A DNA stretch of 64,000 nt from a virus. The position numbers and the translations under genes are program-made. The notes under the pieces were generated by a model that saw only the letters and a program-made list of their open reading frames with translations, was not told the origin of the DNA and did no database searches. Location of the stretch: positions 6,798 to 70,797 of the IMG/VR virus record IMGVR_UViG_3300021478_000002; one strand, given 5' to 3'. Below, one piece after another: positions 1,809 to 37,704 of this stretch; positions within the stretch are counted from its first letter, which is position 1; every line of letters begins with the position of its first letter.

Positions 1809-2609
1809 ATGGGAATCGCATTAGAGATCCTGCGCAGGCGCAGGCCACCGGTCAAATCCGATCTGCCGCCGGAGCTGCCGGTCAAGCAGGGTGACGAGCC
1901 CACTGAAGAGCAGAAGGCCACGGTGCTGCGCGAGGCGGTCAACTACTATATCCGCTCCGGCCTCCGAGCGCCCGACGTCCGCGCGATCTGCGAGGAGTTC
2001 TGCGCGGCCATCGATGCGGCGGCGGGCGGCGGCGGAGTGTCTGGCGATGTGACGGTCTTGCCGACCAGCGCGACCGCGCCAGCCGAGGCTGGGACCGGGA
2101 CTTTCGCTGTGTCCCTGACCAGCGAAGGCTCATGGATGGCGACTGCGATAGATCCGTGGCTGCACATTGATTCGCCGACGGGACCGCAGACGGCATCTGG
2201 GACGGTGGAGTTCAGCATGGAGGCGAATAACGGGGTAGTGGGACAGCCCCCTGCGGATCGGGTAGGGACGGTCGCCGTGAATAACGCAATATTCGAAGTG
2301 ACCCAAAGTCCGTGGGACGTGCTGCCGGTGGAGCTATCGCCGAAGGAAGCGACGTTGGCTGCGACGTCAAGTGTGGGGAATAAGTTCGATGTGACGATCA
2401 CGGGATCGGGGACAAGTGGGACGTGGACGGTGGATATCGAGAATGCAGCCAGACTGTGGCTGATCGTGGCCTCTCCCACGGCACCGCAGAGTACCAACGG
2501 CACGGTGACGTATAGCGTGCAGGCAAACGCGCTCACAACTGAGCGGACGGGCAAGTTCTTCGTGAACGGCCAGCCCTTCACGGTTACTCAAGCCGCCGGA
2601 GGCGTATGA
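1809..2609 (+). CDS. Virion-associated protein with two BACON/Ig-like domains
   Basis: Two repeats of W..W L.(I/V).SPT.PQ...GTV...(E/Q)AN...R.G...VN...F.VTQ; AGGAG RBS. Confidence 0.7.
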   Translation: MGIALEILRRRRPPVKSDLPPELPVKQGDEPTEEQKATVLREAVNYYIRSGLRAPDVRAICEEFCAAIDAAAGGGGVSGDVTVLPTSATAPAEAGTGTFAVSLTSEGSWMATAIDPWLHIDSPTGPQTASGTVEFSMEANNGVVGQPPADRVGTVAVNNAIFEVTQSPWDVLPVELSPKEATLAATSSVGNKFDVTITGSGTSGTWTVDIENAARLWLIVASPTAPQSTNGTVTYSVQANALTTERTGKFFVNGQPFTVTQAAGGV

Positions 2610-2971
2610 TCCACGACCTCATACCATGGCGTACATTGACGCGCACCGGCATTCCGGCGCTCAAGGTGACCCGCCGTCAGATCGTGCTCGGTGAGGTGAT
2701 CGTGCCGGTCGGCGAGACGCTCGATCCCGAGCTGCTCCCTCTGCAGATCCGCCGCGAGCGGCTGCGCCAGTTCTACGAGCAGCGTTTGCTGGAGCCGGTC
2801 AGCGCGCCCAAAGACTCCCGGCAGTTCTACCGCGAGCAGCTCGCGCGCGCGCAGGGCCAGGAGGTTCCGATCACGCCGATCCAGCCGGTCGCCTCGCAGA
2901 TCGTGGCTGACCTGCCAGCCATCGAAGTTGAAGTGGAAGCGGCGAAGCGCAGGCCGAAAGGAGCCAAGTAG
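2606..2971 (+). CDS. Hypothetical head-associated protein
   Basis: ATGA overlap with previous gene; position. Confidence 0.6.
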   Translation: MIHDLIPWRTLTRTGIPALKVTRRQIVLGEVIVPVGETLDPELLPLQIRRERLRQFYEQRLLEPVSAPKDSRQFYREQLARAQGQEVPITPIQPVASQIVADLPAIEVEVEAAKRRPKGAK

Positions 2972-3327
2972 TGGACTTCGATTCGTTGGTAGCCACGATG
3001 GACGACACGCTGGTCGCGACCTTTCAGAAAGTCGACCCGGCGGCAGGTGTTCTCCAGGTCACGCTGCATCCCAACGACGCGACCGGCGACGTCACGGTGT
3101 CCTGCATTGTGAAGAACCCGATCATGGAAGAGGATTATACGCCGGGCAGCCAGACCGGCACCTCCATGCTGACCCTGTTCATCCCGGCATCGGCTGGCGT
3201 GGTGGCGCTGCGCGGCCAGACAGCGACCTACAACGGCGTCGACTACGACGTCCTGCAATCCGATGCCGACCGCTGCGGCGGCGTGCATATCCGCATGCGC
3301 GCACGCACGCAGCCGTACAGCCAGTGA
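2971..3327 (+). CDS. Head-tail joining/closure protein (gpFII-like)
   Basis: 118 aa beta-rich protein; position between head and tail genes. Confidence 0.6.
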   Translation: MDFDSLVATMDDTLVATFQKVDPAAGVLQVTLHPNDATGDVTVSCIVKNPIMEEDYTPGSQTGTSMLTLFIPASAGVVALRGQTATYNGVDYDVLQSDADRCGGVHIRMRARTQPYSQ

Positions 3328-3337
3328 GGCCTATTGA

Positions 3338-3985
3338 ATGCTCGACCCGGATATCGTTCTCAGTTCGGTGCTGGCCTCGCTGCAATCGATCCCTGATTTG
3401 GCGACGGAACTGGGTGCGCCCACTATCCCAGCGACCGACTCGATTACGGGCCATTTTTTTTATAGCGGCGAGGAGAACGCCTACATCCGCTCGCTCGCGC
3501 TGATGAAGAGCCCCTCCATCCTGCTGGCCTACCTCGATTACATCATGGGCAACTATGATGGCATGACCGTCTGGAAGCACCGGATGAATCTCTGCATCCG
3601 CTCGCGCAATAAGGCGTCCAACGGCAGCGCCGCCACAGCGCAGCATATCTGGTGGATGGCCATGAACCTGCCGATCTCGGTGCCGCAGGTCGCGCCCAAC
3701 ATCCGCTACGTGGATCTGGCGGGCGGCATGCTGTGGCTCTTCGAGACCAATCTGAAGCACCAGACGGACGAGCTGGGCCAGGACTTCTTCATTGGCACCA
3801 TGGTCTTCAACGAATACGGTGACGCGGGACCGGACGGCCAGGAGTTCCTGAACGTTGGGCCCAGCAGGCTGGTTCAGCTTGCGCCCACGGTTGACGGCTT
3901 CGCGCATGCGATCAGGCAGAATTTATCCGCCGACGAACGGCGACAGCTCCTCGAAGGAATCACAGAGGAACAAGGAGTCAGTTAA
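3338..3985 (+). CDS. Putative tail terminator/completion protein
   Basis: Immediately upstream of tail tube gene; size. Confidence 0.5.
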   Translation: MLDPDIVLSSVLASLQSIPDLATELGAPTIPATDSITGHFFYSGEENAYIRSLALMKSPSILLAYLDYIMGNYDGMTVWKHRMNLCIRSRNKASNGSAATAQHIWWMAMNLPISVPQVAPNIRYVDLAGGMLWLFETNLKHQTDELGQDFFIGTMVFNEYGDAGPDGQEFLNVGPSRLVQLAPTVDGFAHAIRQNLSADERRQLLEGITEEQGVS

Positions 3986-29861: not shown

Positions 29862-31751
29862 GTGAGCTTGCGTCGGTTCTTTAATCGTAGAGAACGGCGC
29901 GCTTTGTTCCTGGCGGCAGAGGGCTACTGCCGTTGTGGCCTGGAACTCGAAAAGGGATGGCACGCCGATCATGTGGTCGCCTTCGCGGCGGGCGGCGAAA
30001 CAGACGTGTTCAATGGGGAAGCGCTCTGTCCAAAATGCAACCAACGGAAGGGGGGCAAAGGCATGGATTTACGCGAATGGCAGGGAAGATTTCTTAGGCA
30101 CTTCAGCGAGTTCATGGAGAAGCAGCGGGACTATCTGTTGGTGGCCACTCCCGGCTCTGGCAAGACGACGGGGGCCACCCATGCCTCGCTGCGTCTCCTG
30201 AATTCCAGAATTGCTGAACGCATAGTGGTCGTCGTGCCCACCGAATCGCTGAAAAACCAGTGGGCAAAGGCGGCACATAAATGCGCCCGACTATCGTTGA
30301 ACCCGGATTGGGCTGGCGATGCCCCTGAAGGACGAGACTTCCGTGGGGTTGTCGTTACGTACCACAGTCTCTCGTCCGCTTCGCAGCGCTCAATGCACGC
30401 GCAACTCTGTCGGCGGCGGAGAACAGCAGTGATTTTCGATGAAATACACCACCTGGGCGAAGGCGCGTGGGGCGTGGGGGCTCAACAAGCTTTCGGCCAT
30501 GCAGCGTTTCGGCTTGGGCTCTCAGGAACTCCCTTCCGGTCTGATGGTGTGCGAATACCCTTTGTCCGTTACGAACCGCATCAGGACGTGGAAGGTGCGG
30601 TCGAGTGTATCGCTGATTTTTCCTATAGCTACATGGATGCGATGCGCGCACGCCCGCAGGTGTGCCGTTTCGTCTATTTTCCGCGCCGAGAAGGGGAGGC
30701 GCATTGGATCGGGCGCAAGGGCGAGCAGCGGGCAGCGATTAGCGAGCAGATATCCAAGGATCTCGACAGTGAACGCCTGCGCGCCATTCTTGAGCCGTCG
30801 GGAGAATACATTCGAACCCTATTCCAACAGGCTGATGAAAAGCTCACGGAGTGCCGCGCCACCGGACATCGAAACGCGGGAGGACTGATCATAGCCTCTG
30901 ACGTATACGCTGCGGAACGCTACATGCGGGTGATTGAATCGATCACCGGCGAGAAGGCGATGCTCGTCGTCTCCAACCATGAAGAGGCCACCAGTATCGA
31001 TGCTTTTAGGGGCTCGACATGCCGCTGGTTGGTAGCCGTCCGTATGGTTAGTGAGGGCGTCGACATCGACCGCTTGCGGACACTCGTTTATGCGACCGAC
31101 TACCGGACGGAGCTGTATTTCCGGCAAGCCGTAGGCCGGGTAGTTCGCATGACCGACGGGATCACCAATCAACCGGCGTACGTCTTTATCCCTGACGACA
31201 AGCAACTGCGCGAGTGGGCTACGAACATCGAGAACGAAGTCAATCAGATCTTGCGCGAACGGGAGCGGGAACCTAAAACCGGCGGCAATCCTAACGGCGG
31301 CTCGTTGAGTAACGGCGTGTTCCATGTCCTAAATACCAGCGCGGCGACCGACGCCGGGACGATAGCGCCGGGAGTTACGTATACGCCCGAAGAAATTGCT
31401 GAGGCCAGAACACTGCGCAGCGAGTTTGGGATCTCCGAGGCGCATGAAGAGCAAATCGCCCATATGCTGCGGGCACACGATAATCGCAAAGGAACAGAAT
31501 CGACGCCGGGTCCGGTGCTGGCTGAGGACGAGCCTCCCCACGTCAAACTGGCTCGTCTTAGGCGGGAATGCTCGAAGCTGGCCAACCGGCTCGACAAAAT
31601 ACTTGAACGCGAACCCGGTGAAACGCACGCCGAATGGAGAAGGCAAGGTGGCATGCCGCAAGGGGGGGCCTCAATAGATGATCTCGAAAAGAAAAAGAAA
31701 TGGCTCGTTCAGCGAGTCGCACAATTTGCCGATGGCTCAGGAGATGAATGA
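29862..31751 (+). CDS. HNH endonuclease fused to SF2 (DExH, ResIII-like) helicase
   Basis: C.CG...HADHVVAFAAGG.T...N...LCPKCN then LREWQ, ATPGSGKT, FDEIHH, SGTP, MVSEGVD, QAVGRVVR. Confidence 0.9.
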   Translation: MSLRRFFNRRERRALFLAAEGYCRCGLELEKGWHADHVVAFAAGGETDVFNGEALCPKCNQRKGGKGMDLREWQGRFLRHFSEFMEKQRDYLLVATPGSGKTTGATHASLRLLNSRIAERIVVVVPTESLKNQWAKAAHKCARLSLNPDWAGDAPEGRDFRGVVVTYHSLSSASQRSMHAQLCRRRRTAVIFDEIHHLGEGAWGVGAQQAFGHAAFRLGLSGTPFRSDGVRIPFVRYEPHQDVEGAVECIADFSYSYMDAMRARPQVCRFVYFPRREGEAHWIGRKGEQRAAISEQISKDLDSERLRAILEPSGEYIRTLFQQADEKLTECRATGHRNAGGLIIASDVYAAERYMRVIESITGEKAMLVVSNHEEATSIDAFRGSTCRWLVAVRMVSEGVDIDRLRTLVYATDYRTELYFRQAVGRVVRMTDGITNQPAYVFIPDDKQLREWATNIENEVNQILREREREPKTGGNPNGGSLSNGVFHVLNTSAATDAGTIAPGVTYTPEEIAEARTLRSEFGISEAHEEQIAHMLRAHDNRKGTESTPGPVLAEDEPPHVKLARLRRECSKLANRLDKILEREPGETHAEWRRQGGMPQGGASIDDLEKKKKWLVQRVAQFADGSGDE

Positions 31752-32391
31752 AGAGCCGCCCCGCGAATTACTCGCAAACGGGGATGTGGTATTCGATCTC
31801 GCGGAGACGGCTCGCGCCGACGCCGCTGCCTTGAAAGATGCACCGAAAATGGTCCGCAAGACTCTGGAGCGGGGGGCGTGGCGAAAGTTCGCGGACCCGT
31901 ACAGCAAGGCCGTCTTCGAATATGGGCCGGATGAGTTCGAGAAATTCACGCTGGCGAAGCGGCCTGCTGGCCTGGAATTGCCGGAAGGCATCAAGACCCT
32001 GATTGGCATTTGCGAATTGGCGAAAGGCGACGAGGACGCGGCGGCGGCGCTCGTGATATTGCGCGGGCTGGAGCCAAAGGCAGATACCCACGCCGAAGCT
32101 GGAGCGAAAGGCGGCAGGGGCAAGAAAGCTCCTGATAATATCAGGGGCTTTTCAGAGTACGGTACTTCCGATACCTACCTGCTGCGTCGTCTGAAGCGCG
32201 ACCATGCCGACCTTGCGGCGAAGGTTGTGAGCGGCGAGATGAGCGCCCACGCTGCCGGAGTCGAGGCGGGCTTCGTAAAACTGATGGTTCAGCACGAGCC
32301 GACCGTTACCGGGTTCGCGCGTGCAGCCAAAAAGCACCTGACTGATGCCGACCGACTGCAACTGGCGAAACATCTTGAGGCAACCGGATGA
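31744..32391 (+). CDS. Hypothetical protein, possible DNA-binding
   Basis: GTSDTYLLRRLKRDHADLA..V.SGEMSAHAA..EAG motif; overlaps helicase stop. Confidence 0.65.
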   Translation: MNEEPPRELLANGDVVFDLAETARADAAALKDAPKMVRKTLERGAWRKFADPYSKAVFEYGPDEFEKFTLAKRPAGLELPEGIKTLIGICELAKGDEDAAAALVILRGLEPKADTHAEAGAKGGRGKKAPDNIRGFSEYGTSDTYLLRRLKRDHADLAAKVVSGEMSAHAAGVEAGFVKLMVQHEPTVTGFARAAKKHLTDADRLQLAKHLEATG

Positions 32392-32573
32392 AACCTCCAG
32401 AGGACAAGAAGCCGCCGTTATCGCGCGCCGACATGGAGACCATCATCCGTATTGGCCGCGAGCGCGCCGTGCTGCTGGCGCGCCTGAAGGAGGCCATCCT
32501 GACCGGCGACGGGCTGCTGGAGCACCAGCTCGCGCGTGAGCTGGTGGGCCTGCCCAAGGAGGCCACGCAGTGA
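32388..32573 (+). CDS. Hypothetical protein
   Basis: ATGA coupling. Confidence 0.55.
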   Translation: MKPPEDKKPPLSRADMETIIRIGRERAVLLARLKEAILTGDGLLEHQLARELVGLPKEATQ

Positions 32574-32764
32574 CGTCCCACTGGGTAAGCACCCTCGCAT
32601 TCACCATCCTGGTGAAGACCGACGGAGCGAAGATCGTGTTCACCGCGCCGCTGGTGAAGCGCTTCTACGGGCAGCCCGTCGGCAATCTGCTCAACTGGGC
32701 GATCCCCTTCGGCGGCCTGCGGCATACAACCTGGGAATCGGCGCAAAAATCACCGATGGGGTGA
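32570..32764 (+). CDS. Hypothetical protein
   Basis: AAGGAGG RBS; GTGA coupling. Confidence 0.5.
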   Translation: MTSHWVSTLAFTILVKTDGAKIVFTAPLVKRFYGQPVGNLLNWAIPFGGLRHTTWESAQKSPMG

Positions 32765-32810
32765 AATATTATTGACGTGCGCATGTAGTCGTGCAAAACT
32801 GGAATCCATG
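32758..32810 (+). promoter_or_regulatory. Leaderless-type promoter of integrase with inverted TTCACCCC box
   Basis: GGGGTGAA..TTGACG-17 bp-AAAACT-7 bp-ATG; no SD. Confidence 0.65.
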
Positions 32811-34559
32811 ATGCAACCAAACGAACTTCCCCCCGAGGTAATTTCCCTTATCAGATTCAGCACCGCCGAGCAGGTCGGCGAAGGCAAGGCCGGGATTGAC
32901 GGCCAGCGCCAAGTCAACCAGTCCAGCGCAGCTTACCACGGTCTCAAGATCCGCCGCGAGATGGTGGTCGTGGATGTGTCGGGTAAGCACGTCAAGGACG
33001 ACCCGCAGTTCCAGGCACTCTTCAAGGAGCTGGAGGACCCGACGCTCGCCGGTGTGGTCACATCCGAGCAGTCGCGCATCGTGCGTCCCGAGAGCTTTGA
33101 CGATTATCCGATCCTGGGCCACTTCCAGCGCAATAAGAAGTTGATCTATACGCCGACCGGGCGCATCGATCCCAACACGCCGGAAGGCCGCATGGCGCTC
33201 ACCGTCGGCGGCATGATGTCGGGCGAGGAGCTGCACAACCTGCGTAGCCGCTTCGCGCGCGGCAAGGCCACCAAACGCCTCGAAGGCAAGCACGTCGGCG
33301 GCAATCAGATGTTGCCCAAGACCGTGCGCTTCGTGCGCGAGCGCAACGCCGAAGGTGTGAAGACCGGCAAGTCGCACTGGGAGCTGGTACCGCTCGAAGC
33401 CGAGCGCATGAAGCGCGCCTTCCAGTTGCTTCTGGAGGGTCACAGCTACGAGACCATCGCGGAGATGGTCGGTGGCTGGACTGGCAGCGGCCTGCACCGC
33501 GCCTTCATGAACCCGATCCACATCGGCATCCGCCGCTGCGAGTGGACCGTGGGCGCGGAGTATCTGCCGGAGCCGACCGTCAAGAACCCGACGCCGAAAA
33601 AGCGCCGCTATCTGATCAAGCGCGCCGCGCCGCTCGACGTGCCCACGCGCCAGGAGTTGGAGTCGGGCGCGAAGCCGCCGGTCGTGGAGCCGATCATCTC
33701 TCTCGCCGATTGGGATCGCGCGCAGGAGATCATTGCCGCACGCATGAGCCACTGGCGCAAGGGCAAGCTCAAGAACGAAGGCCGCGACCGTGGCGTAGCG
33801 ACCGGCATCGCGGACTGCTCCTGCGGCATGCCGCTCTACATGAAGTACGGCTCGCGCGGCTCGCACACCGACGCCTACATCTGCAAGTCGCGTCACCCGA
33901 GGGGCAAGGGCTGCGGCATGAAATCGATCAAGCGCATCGACCTCGACGCGGCCATCGCGCAAACCATAATGATGCTCGCCGACGCCAGCTTCGTGATGTC
34001 GGCGCTGGAGGCCGCGCTGGCGCTACAGGTGGCCGTTCCCGATCCGGCGCGCGTGCAACGCGAACTGGCGCTCGCCAAGCTCGAAAGCGGGCGCAAGGAA
34101 ATGATTGTTATGGTGCGCAAGGGCGAGATGACGCGCGACGAATTCCGCGAGCAGATGGGCGCGCTGGAGATGGAGGTCCGCGCACTCGAAGCTCTAGTCC
34201 CGGCACCGGCACCGAAGGTGGATGCGAGGCAGCTCGTGGAGCTGGTGGTGGCGGTCTTCACTGAGTTCGCCTTCCTGGCGTTCGTTCAACAGCGTGAGGT
34301 CTTGCGCGGAGCCGTGCGCAGCATTATTGTGGATGGGCATGCGAGGGCGATTACGACTGTGACCATCGACGGGGGATACCTGGGACGCGGCGCTAATTCA
34401 GTACTGCATTCAAGAGCGCAGTACGGAATTAACTCCATTCCCGATCTGACGATTCGGTTCCCCGAACCGTTCATGATTCCAGACACTTACGTGGACCGGC
34501 GCACAGCCAACGGGCATCACCCCGCGAGCATCGCCAGCCGGTGGGAGTCGGTCCAATGA
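32808..34559 (+). CDS. Large serine recombinase (integrase)
   Basis: IRFST.EQ catalytic Ser, DVSG, SRI.R, recombinase domain, Zn ribbon CSCG...YIC...C, coiled coil. Confidence 0.93.
   Translation: MMQPNELPPEVISLIRFSTAEQVGEGKAGIDGQRQVNQSSAAYHGLKIRREMVVVDVSGKHVKDDPQFQALFKELEDPTLAGVVTSEQSRIVRPESFDDYPILGHFQRNKKLIYTPTGRIDPNTPEGRMALTVGGMMSGEELHNLRSRFARGKATKRLEGKHVGGNQMLPKTVRFVRERNAEGVKTGKSHWELVPLEAERMKRAFQLLLEGHSYETIAEMVGGWTGSGLHRAFMNPIHIGIRRCEWTVGAEYLPEPTVKNPTPKKRRYLIKRAAPLDVPTRQELESGAKPPVVEPIISLADWDRAQEIIAARMSHWRKGKLKNEGRDRGVATGIADCSCGMPLYMKYGSRGSHTDAYICKSRHPRGKGCGMKSIKRIDLDAAIAQTIMMLADASFVMSALEAALALQVAVPDPARVQRELALAKLESGRKEMIVMVRKGEMTRDEFREQMGALEMEVRALEALVPAPAPKVDARQLVELVVAVFTEFAFLAFVQQREVLRGAVRSIIVDGHARAITTVTIDGGYLGRGANSVLHSRAQYGINSIPDLTIRFPEPFMIPDTYVDRRTANGHHPASIASRWESVQ
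34389..34436. other. Candidate attP site (48-bp imperfect dyad inside integrase ORF)
   Basis: GGCGCTAATTCAGTACTGC attcAAgagc GCAGTACGGAATTAACTCC; arms 16/19 complementary; central AA at 34412-34413. Confidence 0.65.
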
Positions 34560-34807
34560 CCGGCCAACCGAGCTTAACAGTACAGCGGAGCCCCTACGGG
34601 GGCTCCGTTTGCATTTTGGGGGACCGCTGGGCCCGGCTGAACTACCCGCAAGGGAAGAAGCGCTGGCACGCTACGAACGGCCACCGGGCCATCTGCGGAT
34701 CGGTGGAGTTCGACCATCCACGGGCCGAGTTCAGCGCGGTGAAGCCGGAGCGCGGCAGACTCTGCAAGCGCTGTGTGGCAATCCTGGCGTCTACAGGGGG
34801 TCTGTGA
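34556..34807 (+). CDS. Hypothetical Zn-binding protein
   Basis: ATGA overlap with integrase stop; WH...ICG...CKRC. Confidence 0.55.
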   Translation: MTGQPSLTVQRSPYGGSVCILGDRWARLNYPQGKKRWHATNGHRAICGSVEFDHPRAEFSAVKPERGRLCKRCVAILASTGGL

Positions 34808-35130
34808 TGCGCAGCCCGTCTGCTCGCCCGGCCTGGATTCGCTGCCCCGAGGGATGCGAGGACTACTGGTGCCAGATCCACCAGCAACACGTTTTTCAGT
34901 GCGACTGTCCTCCCGTCGAGGAGTGGGAGGAAGATCCCTACGTCACCGGCGCACCGGTGAAGTGCAGCGTGTGTCAGGACGACGGCTGGCTCGCCTACCC
35001 TACCTGGGCCGACGAGGAGAAAAAAGTGATCCGCATCCGCAAGGTCGCCTGCCCGCGAGGCTGTCCGCTGGCCGACCCGGATGAAAAGGGCGTCCTGCCT
35101 GCGTTCGACGGCGGAGGTGCCACAGCATGA
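34807..35130 (+). CDS. Cys-rich hypothetical protein
   Basis: Multiple Cys/His motifs; TGATG coupling. Confidence 0.55.
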   Translation: MRSPSARPAWIRCPEGCEDYWCQIHQQHVFQCDCPPVEEWEEDPYVTGAPVKCSVCQDDGWLAYPTWADEEKKVIRIRKVACPRGCPLADPDEKGVLPAFDGGGATA

Positions 35131-35330
35131 ACACGCCGATCAATCCTGGGAATACCGGAATTGGCACCACCAGCCCGCAACACCTACTGCACATCTCCCA
35201 GCCGCCGCCTTGGCGCTCGAAACTCTGGATTACTCCTGAGTTCGCGTGCGACTTCACGCACGACGCGCCAAACCGCTGGCGGCGCTTCTGGTATTGGGCG
35301 CTGCTCGGCTGGCGCTGGAGCAAGCCATGA
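35127..35330 (+). CDS. Small protein carrying one tail-fibre-type repeat
   Basis: GGAGG RBS; GNTGIGTTSPQHLLHI. Confidence 0.55.
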   Translation: MNTPINPGNTGIGTTSPQHLLHISQPPPWRSKLWITPEFACDFTHDAPNRWRRFWYWALLGWRWSKP

Positions 35331-35406
35331 ACACTTCCGGTCTAGCCAGGGGTAAGGGCGTACTCGTACACGCTGGTCTGATGTGGAGCGCCGCCGGAGA
35401 TCGCCC

Positions 35407-35601
35407 ATGAGCACCCTGGTGTGGAGTGACAGCAGCATCAGCGAATGCCCCGGCTGTGGTGCAACCGTGGTCGTCGGCATCATGTCGCTGTGCGCTACCT
35501 GCGCCTGCGGCATGTACTACGTGGACGCTGACGGATGGCGCGGCTGGTATTACTCACCCGCACACTTTGCGGGTGGCGGCGAGCCCGTGGGGAGGCCCTG
35601 A
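35407..35601 (+). CDS. Small Zn-finger protein
   Basis: CPGC...CATCACG. Confidence 0.5.
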   Translation: MSTLVWSDSSISECPGCGATVVVGIMSLCATCACGMYYVDADGWRGWYYSPAHFAGGGEPVGRP

Positions 35602-35745
35602 ATGTATTGGGATCACGAGCGCTTCCAGACCCACTGCCGATTCTGCAATAAAACGCTGGAGGCCGATTCGGCGGCGGAAGCCATCGAGCTGGTCGAGGAG
35701 CACGAAAAAACCGACTGTCCGAAAAGAAAGGTCGTGGCGAAATGA
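35602..35745 (+). CDS. Small Zn-finger protein (47 aa, below ORF-track cutoff)
   Basis: GGAGG RBS; CRFC...H....C. Confidence 0.5.
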   Translation: MYWDHERFQTHCRFCNKTLEADSAAEAIELVEEHEKTDCPKRKVVAK

Positions 35746-36071
35746 GACACTGCGCGCAAGGCCACTTCATCCCCGAAGACAAGCTGACCTGTCCCGAGTG
35801 CGCCACGGCGCGCGGCGAGGAGGCCTTCCATAGCCTGCAGCTCGAATTCCTGCGCAAGGCGGCAGACGGCGAGCATAACTACACGCTGCGCGTTGCCAAG
35901 GGCCCCGACCGGCACGTGCTGATGTACACGTCGTGGGTACGCACCTTCTGCGGGCAGGAACTGAAGACGAAGCCGCAGATTGCATACGAGGCACTCGACG
36001 CCAACGCGCTCTCCAGGGTCTGCGCCGGATGCCGTATCGAAATTACCCGTGCGCTCCAGGAGGTTTCATGA
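35742..36071 (+). CDS. Cys-rich hypothetical protein
   Basis: CAQGH...CPEC...CAGC. Confidence 0.55.
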   Translation: MRHCAQGHFIPEDKLTCPECATARGEEAFHSLQLEFLRKAADGEHNYTLRVAKGPDRHVLMYTSWVRTFCGQELKTKPQIAYEALDANALSRVCAGCRIEITRALQEVS

Positions 36072-36783: not shown

Positions 36784-37704
36784 ATGCCGTTACTCAACAG
36801 CATACTCGAAATCCACAATCTGTCCAGTGGGGCACACCGGGCTTTAATTGGCTTGTTATCGTTCCGAAACAAAGCCAATGGGCAGTGTAATCCGAAGATG
36901 GAGACGCTGGGAGAACGCCTGGGCGGAATCCCCGAGCGCACATTACGCCGCTGGTTGCACGAGCTGCGGCTCGCCGGTGTAGTGTACGCGACCAAACATC
37001 GCGGGTCGAATTCCTACCGGATTAACATTTCCACAGACTGTGAAAAACCGGCTGTGGAAAACGCTCAAGACCGGCCAAAAGTGGCCGCTCAAGACCGGCC
37101 AAAAGTGGCCGCTCAAGACCGGCCAAAAATGGCCGGTCTCAACGCTCGTATCCTTACTGAACAGACAGTATTGAACAGACAGAGGGGAACCGCCGCCGCC
37201 GACGTACACGCTATACGTGTGGAAAAGGCGGCGGCGGCGGCACTGCCCTTGTTTGATGAAATCGAAACCCCAACACCCCAGGCCGAGGCTGAGAAGCTGG
37301 TGGCCGAGCTGATGCCGCAGCACCCGGAGCCGGGCAATTTGCCTAAGGCCATCAACGAAGCTGCAAAGCTCCTGGCCAGCAGGCCGGAGACGCTCACGGC
37401 GACCATCGAGACCCTCCGGCGCAACCACGGGCTCTGGCGGGCGCGCTGGGCCACGTATGCCGCCGGTCGATTCGTGCCGCAGTTGTGGCGCTGGTTTCAT
37501 GACGGCGACTGGGAACATCCGCCGGTGGACCGGAAACCGGTGCAGAGCGAGACGTGGCACGAGCGCCACGAGCGGGAACGCAAGGAATCGGACGAGGAAA
37601 ATTACCGGCGTTATGCCGAGCTAGGTATGTGGTCGGCGCTGCGCGAGTATGGCGGCGATGCTCTTGTGGAGGTATGGCGTGAGAAAGTCAAAGCTGTTGG
37701 ATGA
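36784..37704 (+). CDS. Replication initiator (N-terminal winged HTH, lambda O-like)
   Basis: GQCNPKMETLGERLGGIPERTLRRWLHEL...SNSY; internal iterons. Confidence 0.85.
   Translation: MPLLNSILEIHNLSSGAHRALIGLLSFRNKANGQCNPKMETLGERLGGIPERTLRRWLHELRLAGVVYATKHRGSNSYRINISTDCEKPAVENAQDRPKVAAQDRPKVAAQDRPKMAGLNARILTEQTVLNRQRGTAAADVHAIRVEKAAAAALPLFDEIETPTPQAEAEKLVAELMPQHPEPGNLPKAINEAAKLLASRPETLTATIETLRRNHGLWRARWATYAAGRFVPQLWRWFHDGDWEHPPVDRKPVQSETWHERHERERKESDEENYRRYAELGMWSALREYGGDALVEVWREKVKAVG
37028..37134. repeat. Putative replication origin: three 24-bp iterons plus inverted TTTCCACAG pair
   Basis: GCTCAAGACCGGCCAAAARTGGCC x3 at 37063-37134; TTTCCACAG (37028) / CTGTGGAAA (37052). Confidence 0.75.

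Follow-up and report, generated by a model that had tools for sequence, protein, structure and literature searches.

An imperfect dyad inside the coding sequence of a soil-phage serine integrase is the likely attP site of the enzyme

The locus described here raises the question whether the gene of a phage integrase can carry, within its own reading frame, the phage attachment site (attP) at which the encoded enzyme recombines. It lies in a stretch of 64,000 nucleotides, in the following called the window, which covers bases 6798-70797 of its source, the 70,797-bp virus record IMGVR_UViG_3300021478_000002. Two sequencing runs (X1 and X2), both labelled as soil metagenome, contain parts of the window. 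The integrase gene (int) occupies positions 32811-34559 on the plus strand and encodes a large serine integrase of 582 amino acids. Near the end of this gene, an earlier sequence-only reading had noticed a 48-bp imperfect dyad (34389-34436) and had taken it for an attP-like site in its unintegrated form. Our analysis leads to the same view: the dyad is likely the attP of the encoded integrase, placed inside the int coding sequence, and the record is likely the free form of the phage. The record is assigned to the free attP form because it bears direct terminal repeats; its completeness is rated 100%.

Re-measurement of arms and centre bore out the geometry given in the earlier reading. The arms (34389-34407 and 34418-34436) comprise 19 nt each, are complementary at 16 of 19 positions (84%) and enclose a 10-nt spacer, with A34412 and A34413 flanking the axis of symmetry. 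Complementarity amounts to 18 of 24 positions when all 48 bp are counted. The proposed attP, to which no strand is assigned, is thereby composed of a P half (34389-34412) and a P' half (34413-34436). It encodes residues GANSVLHSRAQYGINS, corresponding to codons 540-555 of the 595-codon open reading frame (ORF), i.e. 16 codons inside the int frame. The central AA dinucleotide (34412-34413), the predicted point of crossover, is formed by the last base of a Ser codon and the first base of an Arg codon. From the centre to the end of the stop codon there are 147 bp, with 48 codons after the centre, in agreement with the about 150 bp estimated before. Since the last Pfam domain extends to residue 399 of 595, the dyad is located downstream of the recognisable domains. 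It is also richer in AT than the rest of the gene, as had been claimed: two 60-nt windows at the dyad show a G+C content of 0.47 (34390-34449) and 0.48 (34420-34479), compared to 0.52-0.77, mostly 0.58-0.77, in the remaining 60-nt windows of int, the first about 50 bases excepted.

Applying a criterion of 19-nt arms with at least 16 matches and a spacer of 0-12 nt, the dyad in int is the single one of this quality in the 64,000 bases. When the window was shuffled 100 times with dinucleotides preserved, 15 of the shuffles had at least one equally good dyad (mean 0.24), so the single dyad is not significant by itself. Its significance derives from its conservation in relatives. The second-best 48-bp dyad near int (32510-32558, centred at 32534, 15/24) is situated in the upstream coding region.

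Our homologue set contained 38 proteins; in addition, viral and metagenome contigs supplied 20 loci, L003 and L011 being one contig. Nine loci bear the site, namely the window and L007, L009, L012, L002, L011, L014, L013 and L006, with protein identities of 32-55%. In all nine, the best 48-bp dyad within int and 1 kb on either side was found at homologous codons (16-19/24, compared to 13-15 for the runner-up), ranking first among about 1,850-3,800 positions scanned around the gene. Counted over positions 1-24 from the centre, 157 of 216 cells are Watson-Crick pairs. The symmetry is highest at positions 6-10 (41/45 cells) and 14-24 (87/99), positions 11 and 13 are complementary in two of the nine loci each, and beyond position 24 the symmetry falls to chance level (10/36 cells at positions 25-28). 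The extent of 48 bp is thus a property of all nine loci, and the central dinucleotide is AA in eight of them. Between the window and L007, the 19-nt left arm is identical at a protein identity of 55%. A relative found in run X2 retains the dyad with four changes in the right arm, two of which mend mismatches of the arms in the window, the other two being at positions 11-12. A degenerate pattern of the arms matched two further viral contigs; both are from AT-rich phages lacking integrase homology, and we consider these matches to be chance.

The arms change together. A both-sided, compensatory change was seen in 13 of 17 arm pairs across the nine loci, e.g. GGCGC...GCGCC, GGAGT...ACTCC and TGTGTC...GACACA. 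Paired cells amounted to 88.9%, compared to 68.3% in shuffles, of which none of 500 was as high, and to 24-42% with slid partners, figures that are somewhat flattered and to that degree argue less for an attP, as the 17 pairs were picked after the symmetry table had been seen. Wobble pairs are not used, as G:T accounts for only 3 of the 59 non-complementary cells. Furthermore, the third codon position inside the site is as conserved as the others (identity 0.72/0.65/0.69 for first, second and third positions; five loci, ten pairs), whereas the flanks display the usual coding pattern in the same comparison (upstream 0.57/0.74/0.33, tail 0.59/0.81/0.46). Taken with the homologous position and the shared extent, these changes support the attP-like nature of the site suggested by the sequence-only reading.

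In three further loci (L004, L005 and L019, 30-34% protein identity), the left half of the site is recognisable and the right half is unrelated; symmetry at the corresponding position does not exceed background (8-10/24, ranks 109-323). In L004, the sequence to the right of ...CTCA|A belongs to a radical SAM gene, just ahead of its CxxxCxxC motif (PF04055, 2.2e-11, profile positions 2-133), and the integrase frame ends 12 codons past the centre. In L019, the centre is followed by a 5'-truncated signalling domain of a methyl-accepting chemotaxis protein (MCP) lacking profile positions 1-57 (PF00015, 1.2e-24) and then by a gene of the beta-lactamase family; here the integrase frame ends after 3 codons. 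The record of L005, classified as provirus in IMG/VR, terminates at the int stop codon, 33 nt beyond the centre. In L004 and L005, the change of sequence within the hybrid site falls at the centre, with the AA kept. The records bearing terminal repeats, of which there are three (window, G003 and G005), on the other hand all contain the intact dyad. Compared to the expected P' half, the foreign halves (B') of L004, L005 and L019 match at 7, 5 and 6 of the 10 inner positions 2-11, and at 2, 5 and 0 of the 11 positions 14-24, respectively. The likeness at the inner positions fits bacterial attachment (attB) half-sites that share an inner recognition motif.

The same point is marked by proteins closer to the integrase of the window. 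The C-terminal region is present in 36 of the 38 homologues, and P0009, P0010, P0024 and P0026 (62-69% identity) diverge 0-2 residues past the central Ser codon. The divergence of P0011 is ambiguous, giving four or five homologues that diverge at this codon. The prediction that integration replaces the last about 48 residues of the enzyme is therefore upheld in relatives by the three hybrid sites, whose frames run 3-12 codons into foreign DNA, and by these four or five proteins. The breakpoints predicted at 34412-34413 are matched in part: junctions exist at the homologous centre in relatives, and neither a split read nor a prophage of the window's own phage was found.

Some observations on these insertions may be of interest for themselves. 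L004 (11499-11915) shows an insertion into a radical SAM host gene at its CxxxCxxC cluster motif, and the phage half-site provides the radical SAM frame with a TTG start and 12 codons. L019 (1231-1818) shows an insertion at the hairpin-tip motif of a chemotaxis receptor signalling domain; both motifs are strongly conserved. L020, a 2.6-kb soil contig (3-362, 1427-1789, 2003-2630), contains the C-terminal remnant of an integrase, in which the tail is frameshifted and a symmetric site is absent, together with a separate N-terminal integrase fragment 75% identical to the enzyme of the window. A PIN-domain gene (PF01850, 2.4e-12) adjoins these pieces, together with a small partner ORF upstream of it. 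L020 may be a scarred integration hotspot.

Several results weigh against the dyad being the attP of this phage. Scans of 185,579 species genomes with the integrase alignment and with the 50-residue tail detected no relative, and neither these scans nor the two soil runs provided an integrated copy, a split read or an attB for the phage of the window. The Logan contigs of run X1 leave positions 34276-34543 uncovered, and the sole X2 contig crossing the site contains the intact dyad. For the phage of the window, the contigs of X1 and X2 show the site neither spanned nor interrupted and so give no evidence in either direction. No DNA of the other prophage end (attL) was seen: a search of G001 and G002 did not find the P' arm (up to 7 mismatches) or a tail-like peptide elsewhere in these records. 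Among the nine site-bearing loci, L006 is centred on TC. The junction letters of L019 are A|T instead of AA, so that the crossover would be 1-2 nt off the assumed centre or the core would be a different one. The displaced outer motif known from attB geometry showed no consistent offset in the three B' halves. Finally, the RNA of the dyad is predicted to fold into a hairpin of -24.1 kcal/mol, whereas shuffled versions average -13.4 (z -4.17) and none of 200 is as stable.

This stability would suit an explanation in which the dyad is nothing but a hairpin of the int mRNA, serving as a processing or stability element or as a translational pause, with the real attP elsewhere. A conserved RNA stem would also give rise to compensatory changes just as a DNA site does. 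The near-absence of wobble pairs among the non-complementary cells is hard to reconcile with such a stem, and so is the fact that its positions 11 and 13 are non-complementary in seven of the nine loci each. Moreover, a hairpin would not account for the AA fixed within the central 10 nt or for the three relatives switching to foreign genes at the centre, and in none of the nine loci is there a better dyad within 1 kb of int that could take the role of attP. We regard the mRNA hairpin as quite improbable. Alternatively it might be that the integrase uses the dyad as a binding or recombination site for another purpose than chromosomal integration, such as autoregulation of int or the site-by-site resolution of genome multimers, and that integration at this place is confined to more distant relatives. 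The scans yielded no integrated form at DNA level for this phage or for relatives above 55% identity, and the hybrids known at DNA level all come from relatives with 30-34% identity, as would be expected in that case. The proteins P0009, P0010, P0024 and P0026, at 62-69% identity, nevertheless diverge at the central codon. A 48-bp site with a non-palindromic centre fits the architecture of an attP, and the enzyme possesses the full set of integrase domains including the coiled-coil region. A use other than integration thus appears unlikely to us.

A third possibility is that the palindrome arose by chance or follows from the conservation of a peptide, and does nothing as DNA. This would agree with the 15 of 100 shuffles containing a dyad as good and with the conservation of the peptide GANS...I.S. 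Conservation and covariation between the arms, however, extend to the third codon positions, and the two arms vary in concert where the peptide differs (GANSVL/QSGISA, GVNSSL/QSPIDS, CVNSQL/QQQIDT). The residues encoded there are, in addition, predicted to be disordered, and recent copying of one sequence is disfavoured by the protein identities of 32-55% among the relatives. Chance or peptide conservation is in our opinion a very remote explanation.

If the dyad is the attP, as we consider likely, the following course of integration can be proposed. Integrase dimers would bind both half-sites and pair the site with a shorter attB of the host. Both sites would be cut at the central AA (34412-34413, the inferred crossover) and strands would be exchanged. 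Because the site occupies codons 540-555 of the ORF, the exchange would leave codons 1-547 at one end of the prophage. This would be the attR end (P-O-B'), where the frame would extend into host sequence for a few codons. The final 48 codons together with the terminator would be found at the other end (attL), without a start codon. A free phage would accordingly synthesize the full-length integrase, in which a disordered linker encoded by the site precedes a confidently predicted beta-strand. A prophage would synthesize an integrase lacking the tail and carrying a short host-encoded end instead, and excision would restore the gene. From the sequence evidence in relatives we infer that this particular phage integrates at the dyad. 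The tail may alter activity, directionality or stability of the enzyme, for which the tyrosine integrase of Mx8 provides a precedent.

The terminator in question is an intrinsic-terminator-like hairpin with a T-run (34584-34617, plus strand), 25 bp past the int stop, consisting of an 11-pair stem with 8 G-C pairs and a T-rich tail. The frame of int is open from position 32772 (595-residue ORF); ATG 32811 was assigned as start because the database's own gene product (P0002) has 582 amino acids. All residue and codon numbers refer to the 595-residue ORF, in which Pfam domains were detected at residues 24-173 (Resolvase, PF00239, 48.4 bits), 209-323 (Recombinase, PF07508, 22.5 bits) and 345-399 (Zn_ribbon_recom, PF13408, 29.7 bits), all over the cut-offs. 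The Ser and Arg columns of the catalytic region are near-invariant in the alignment of homologues. With 30 homologues as input, AlphaFold2 produced a model (mean pLDDT 76.9) that gave full-length Foldseek matches to the integrases of SPbeta, PhiC31, Bxb1 and LI as top hits (E 8.6e-19 to 5e-09; about 1e-14 to 1e-19 for SPbeta, PhiC31 and Bxb1 alone). The match to the SPbeta integrase at sequence level is weak (6.5e-05). Residues 388-475 of the model form long helices, representing the coiled-coil region. Judged by its Pfam domains and predicted fold, the encoded enzyme is a large serine integrase.

The segment coding for the tail (34413-34559, plus strand) comprises 48 codons and the stop codon and includes the conserved strand DLTIRFPEPF. 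In the AlphaFold2 model, residues 536-555 have a pLDDT below 50, and the strand DLTIRFPEPF follows at residues 559-568 (mean pLDDT 82 over the 561-570 block). As codons 540-555 essentially coincide with the segment of low pLDDT, the attachment site would be located in a predicted disordered linker. The tail strand and the following motif IPDTYVDRR..NG.HP are retained as protein in most homologues, and in a subgroup the end of the tail is replaced by a long extension rich in Lys, Arg and Ala. The codon-position identities given above for the tail are typical of selection at protein level, which suggests that the part beyond the site is under such selection.

When 1.84 billion representatives were searched with a profile restricted to the tail, 16 matches were obtained. 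The ten inspected are two full-length integrases, six C-terminal fragments or fusions and two orphan tails, whereas P0046, P0047, P0049, P0050, P0051 and P0054 (461-3,699 amino acids, 4-9 matched stretches), which may be repeat proteins, were set aside. The orphan tails, known as proteins only, are P0042 (48 amino acids) and P0052 (41 amino acids, the first 16 residues unlike any integrase); they are what an attL would leave. A locus for P0042 was not found in the viral contigs. Word-based protein queries with the tail returned only integrases among longer proteins and only P0042 near the length of the query.

P0040 (272 amino acids, known as protein only) carries 78 N-terminal residues fused to the last about 190 residues of an integrase with intact tail. 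The fusion junction is about 120 residues upstream of the dyad, not at the dyad. A likeness of its N-terminal part to competence proteins turned out to be unsupported, as no Pfam family was assigned. The tail ends themselves (window 34437-34556 and homologues) can be sorted into classes ending with ...V/I-Q, with ...A-A or V-A, or with the long Lys/Arg/Ala-rich extension, the latter in P0017, P0027, P0034, P0036-P0038, P0055 and L014. The Ala-Ala ends may resemble protease-recognition tags.

The int gene is situated within a replication module of the same strand, between an HNH-helicase gene on its upstream side and a replication-initiator gene on its downstream side. The upstream gene (29862-31751) encodes a fusion of HNH endonuclease and helicase (phrog_16, 2.2e-33; phrog_2118), the downstream gene (36784-37704) a replication-initiation protein (phrog_270, 7.6e-11). 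The region around the int start (32740-32860) is AT-rich (G+C 0.45-0.47) and contains a TTGACG hexamer at 32773; a consensus scan of this region detected no plus-strand promoter. The record has a G+C content of about 61% and contains no tRNA genes, and megablast of positions 32000-36000 against the phage collection gave no match. Contig ends at 32647/32679 were considered as a possible junction and rejected: a single 251-nt contig of run X1 (121 + 33 + 97 nt) shares no more than 33 nt with the phage. These 33 nt lie inside a small ORF (32570-32764), and the flanks of the contig occur nowhere in the phage genome. The match is probably a piece of the homologous gene from another phage.

Compared to known systems, the enzyme belongs by Pfam domains and fold to the same family as the integrases of PhiC31, Bxb1 and A118/LI and SprA of SPbeta, and the dyad resembles the attP sites of serine integrases in its length of about 48 bp, its imperfect symmetry and, with AA as the putative core, its non-palindromic central dinucleotide. 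In contrast to the PhiC31, Bxb1, A118 and SPbeta type, the proposed attP is not intergenic but consists of 16 codons of int's own frame. As it is located there, integration would truncate the enzyme and remove the terminator. Insertion into conserved coding motifs of host genes, as seen in the relatives, is described in surveys of large serine recombinases (PMC10083194). A partial search of the literature yielded no description of a serine integrase with attP inside its own frame (including PMC10083194 and PMC3556126). In myxophage Mx8, as a review describes, attP is part of the coding sequence of int, and integration yields a recombinant gene whose 3' end is new; the activity of the integrase is thereby altered but not abolished (PMC6070905).

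The likeness to Mx8 IntP/IntX consists in the intragenic attP and the replacement of the C-terminus on integration. The Mx8 integrase is a tyrosine recombinase with another site architecture and chemistry, unlike the enzyme studied here, which by Pfam domains and fold is of the serine type. The present system thus appears to work like Mx8 without being a member of the Mx8 family. In the archaeal integrases of the SSV1 type, too, the recombination site is inside the integrase gene and integration disrupts the gene. They differ in being tyrosine recombinases of archaeal viruses whose gene is split more centrally, whereas here just the 48-residue tail would be lost. In the case of the repressor of the mycobacteriophages BPs and Brujita and of sib of phage lambda, a phage gene or its transcript acquires a different 3' end when integration takes place at attP. 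These cases are alike in that a product differs between the phage and the prophage state, but what is affected there is a C-terminal tag of the repressor or an RNase III site downstream of int, and the recombinases are tyrosine recombinases.

Some consequences concern annotation and sequence evolution. In annotations derived from prophages, the truncated, host-fused form of such an integrase would be recorded and the conserved tail missed, and orphan tails of 40-50 codons can mark old integration scars. DNA site and protein sequence constrain each other in the same 48 bases.

Serine integrases are valued as simple, one-directional tools, whose directionality is generally attributed to the coiled-coil together with a separate directionality factor. 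It is tempting, though at present rather doubtful, to regard the intragenic attP as a built-in switch between two forms of the integrase common to a whole clade of soil-phage serine integrases, with directionality or commitment to lysogeny set in part by the recombination product itself. The conserved tail strand might then dock on the DNA-binding or coiled-coil region and favour the attP x attB reaction, or it might mark the protein for turnover, and the tail-less enzyme of the prophage would have an altered activity or stability. If this were true, direction would not be set by a separate directionality factor alone. As a corollary, the peptide of the linker would be dictated by the enzyme's own DNA site, with the arms read as mirror-related peptides, e.g. 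GANS.../...GISA. A clade in which integration rewrites the C-terminus of the enzyme would represent a natural experiment on the control of direction, activity or stability in serine integrases.

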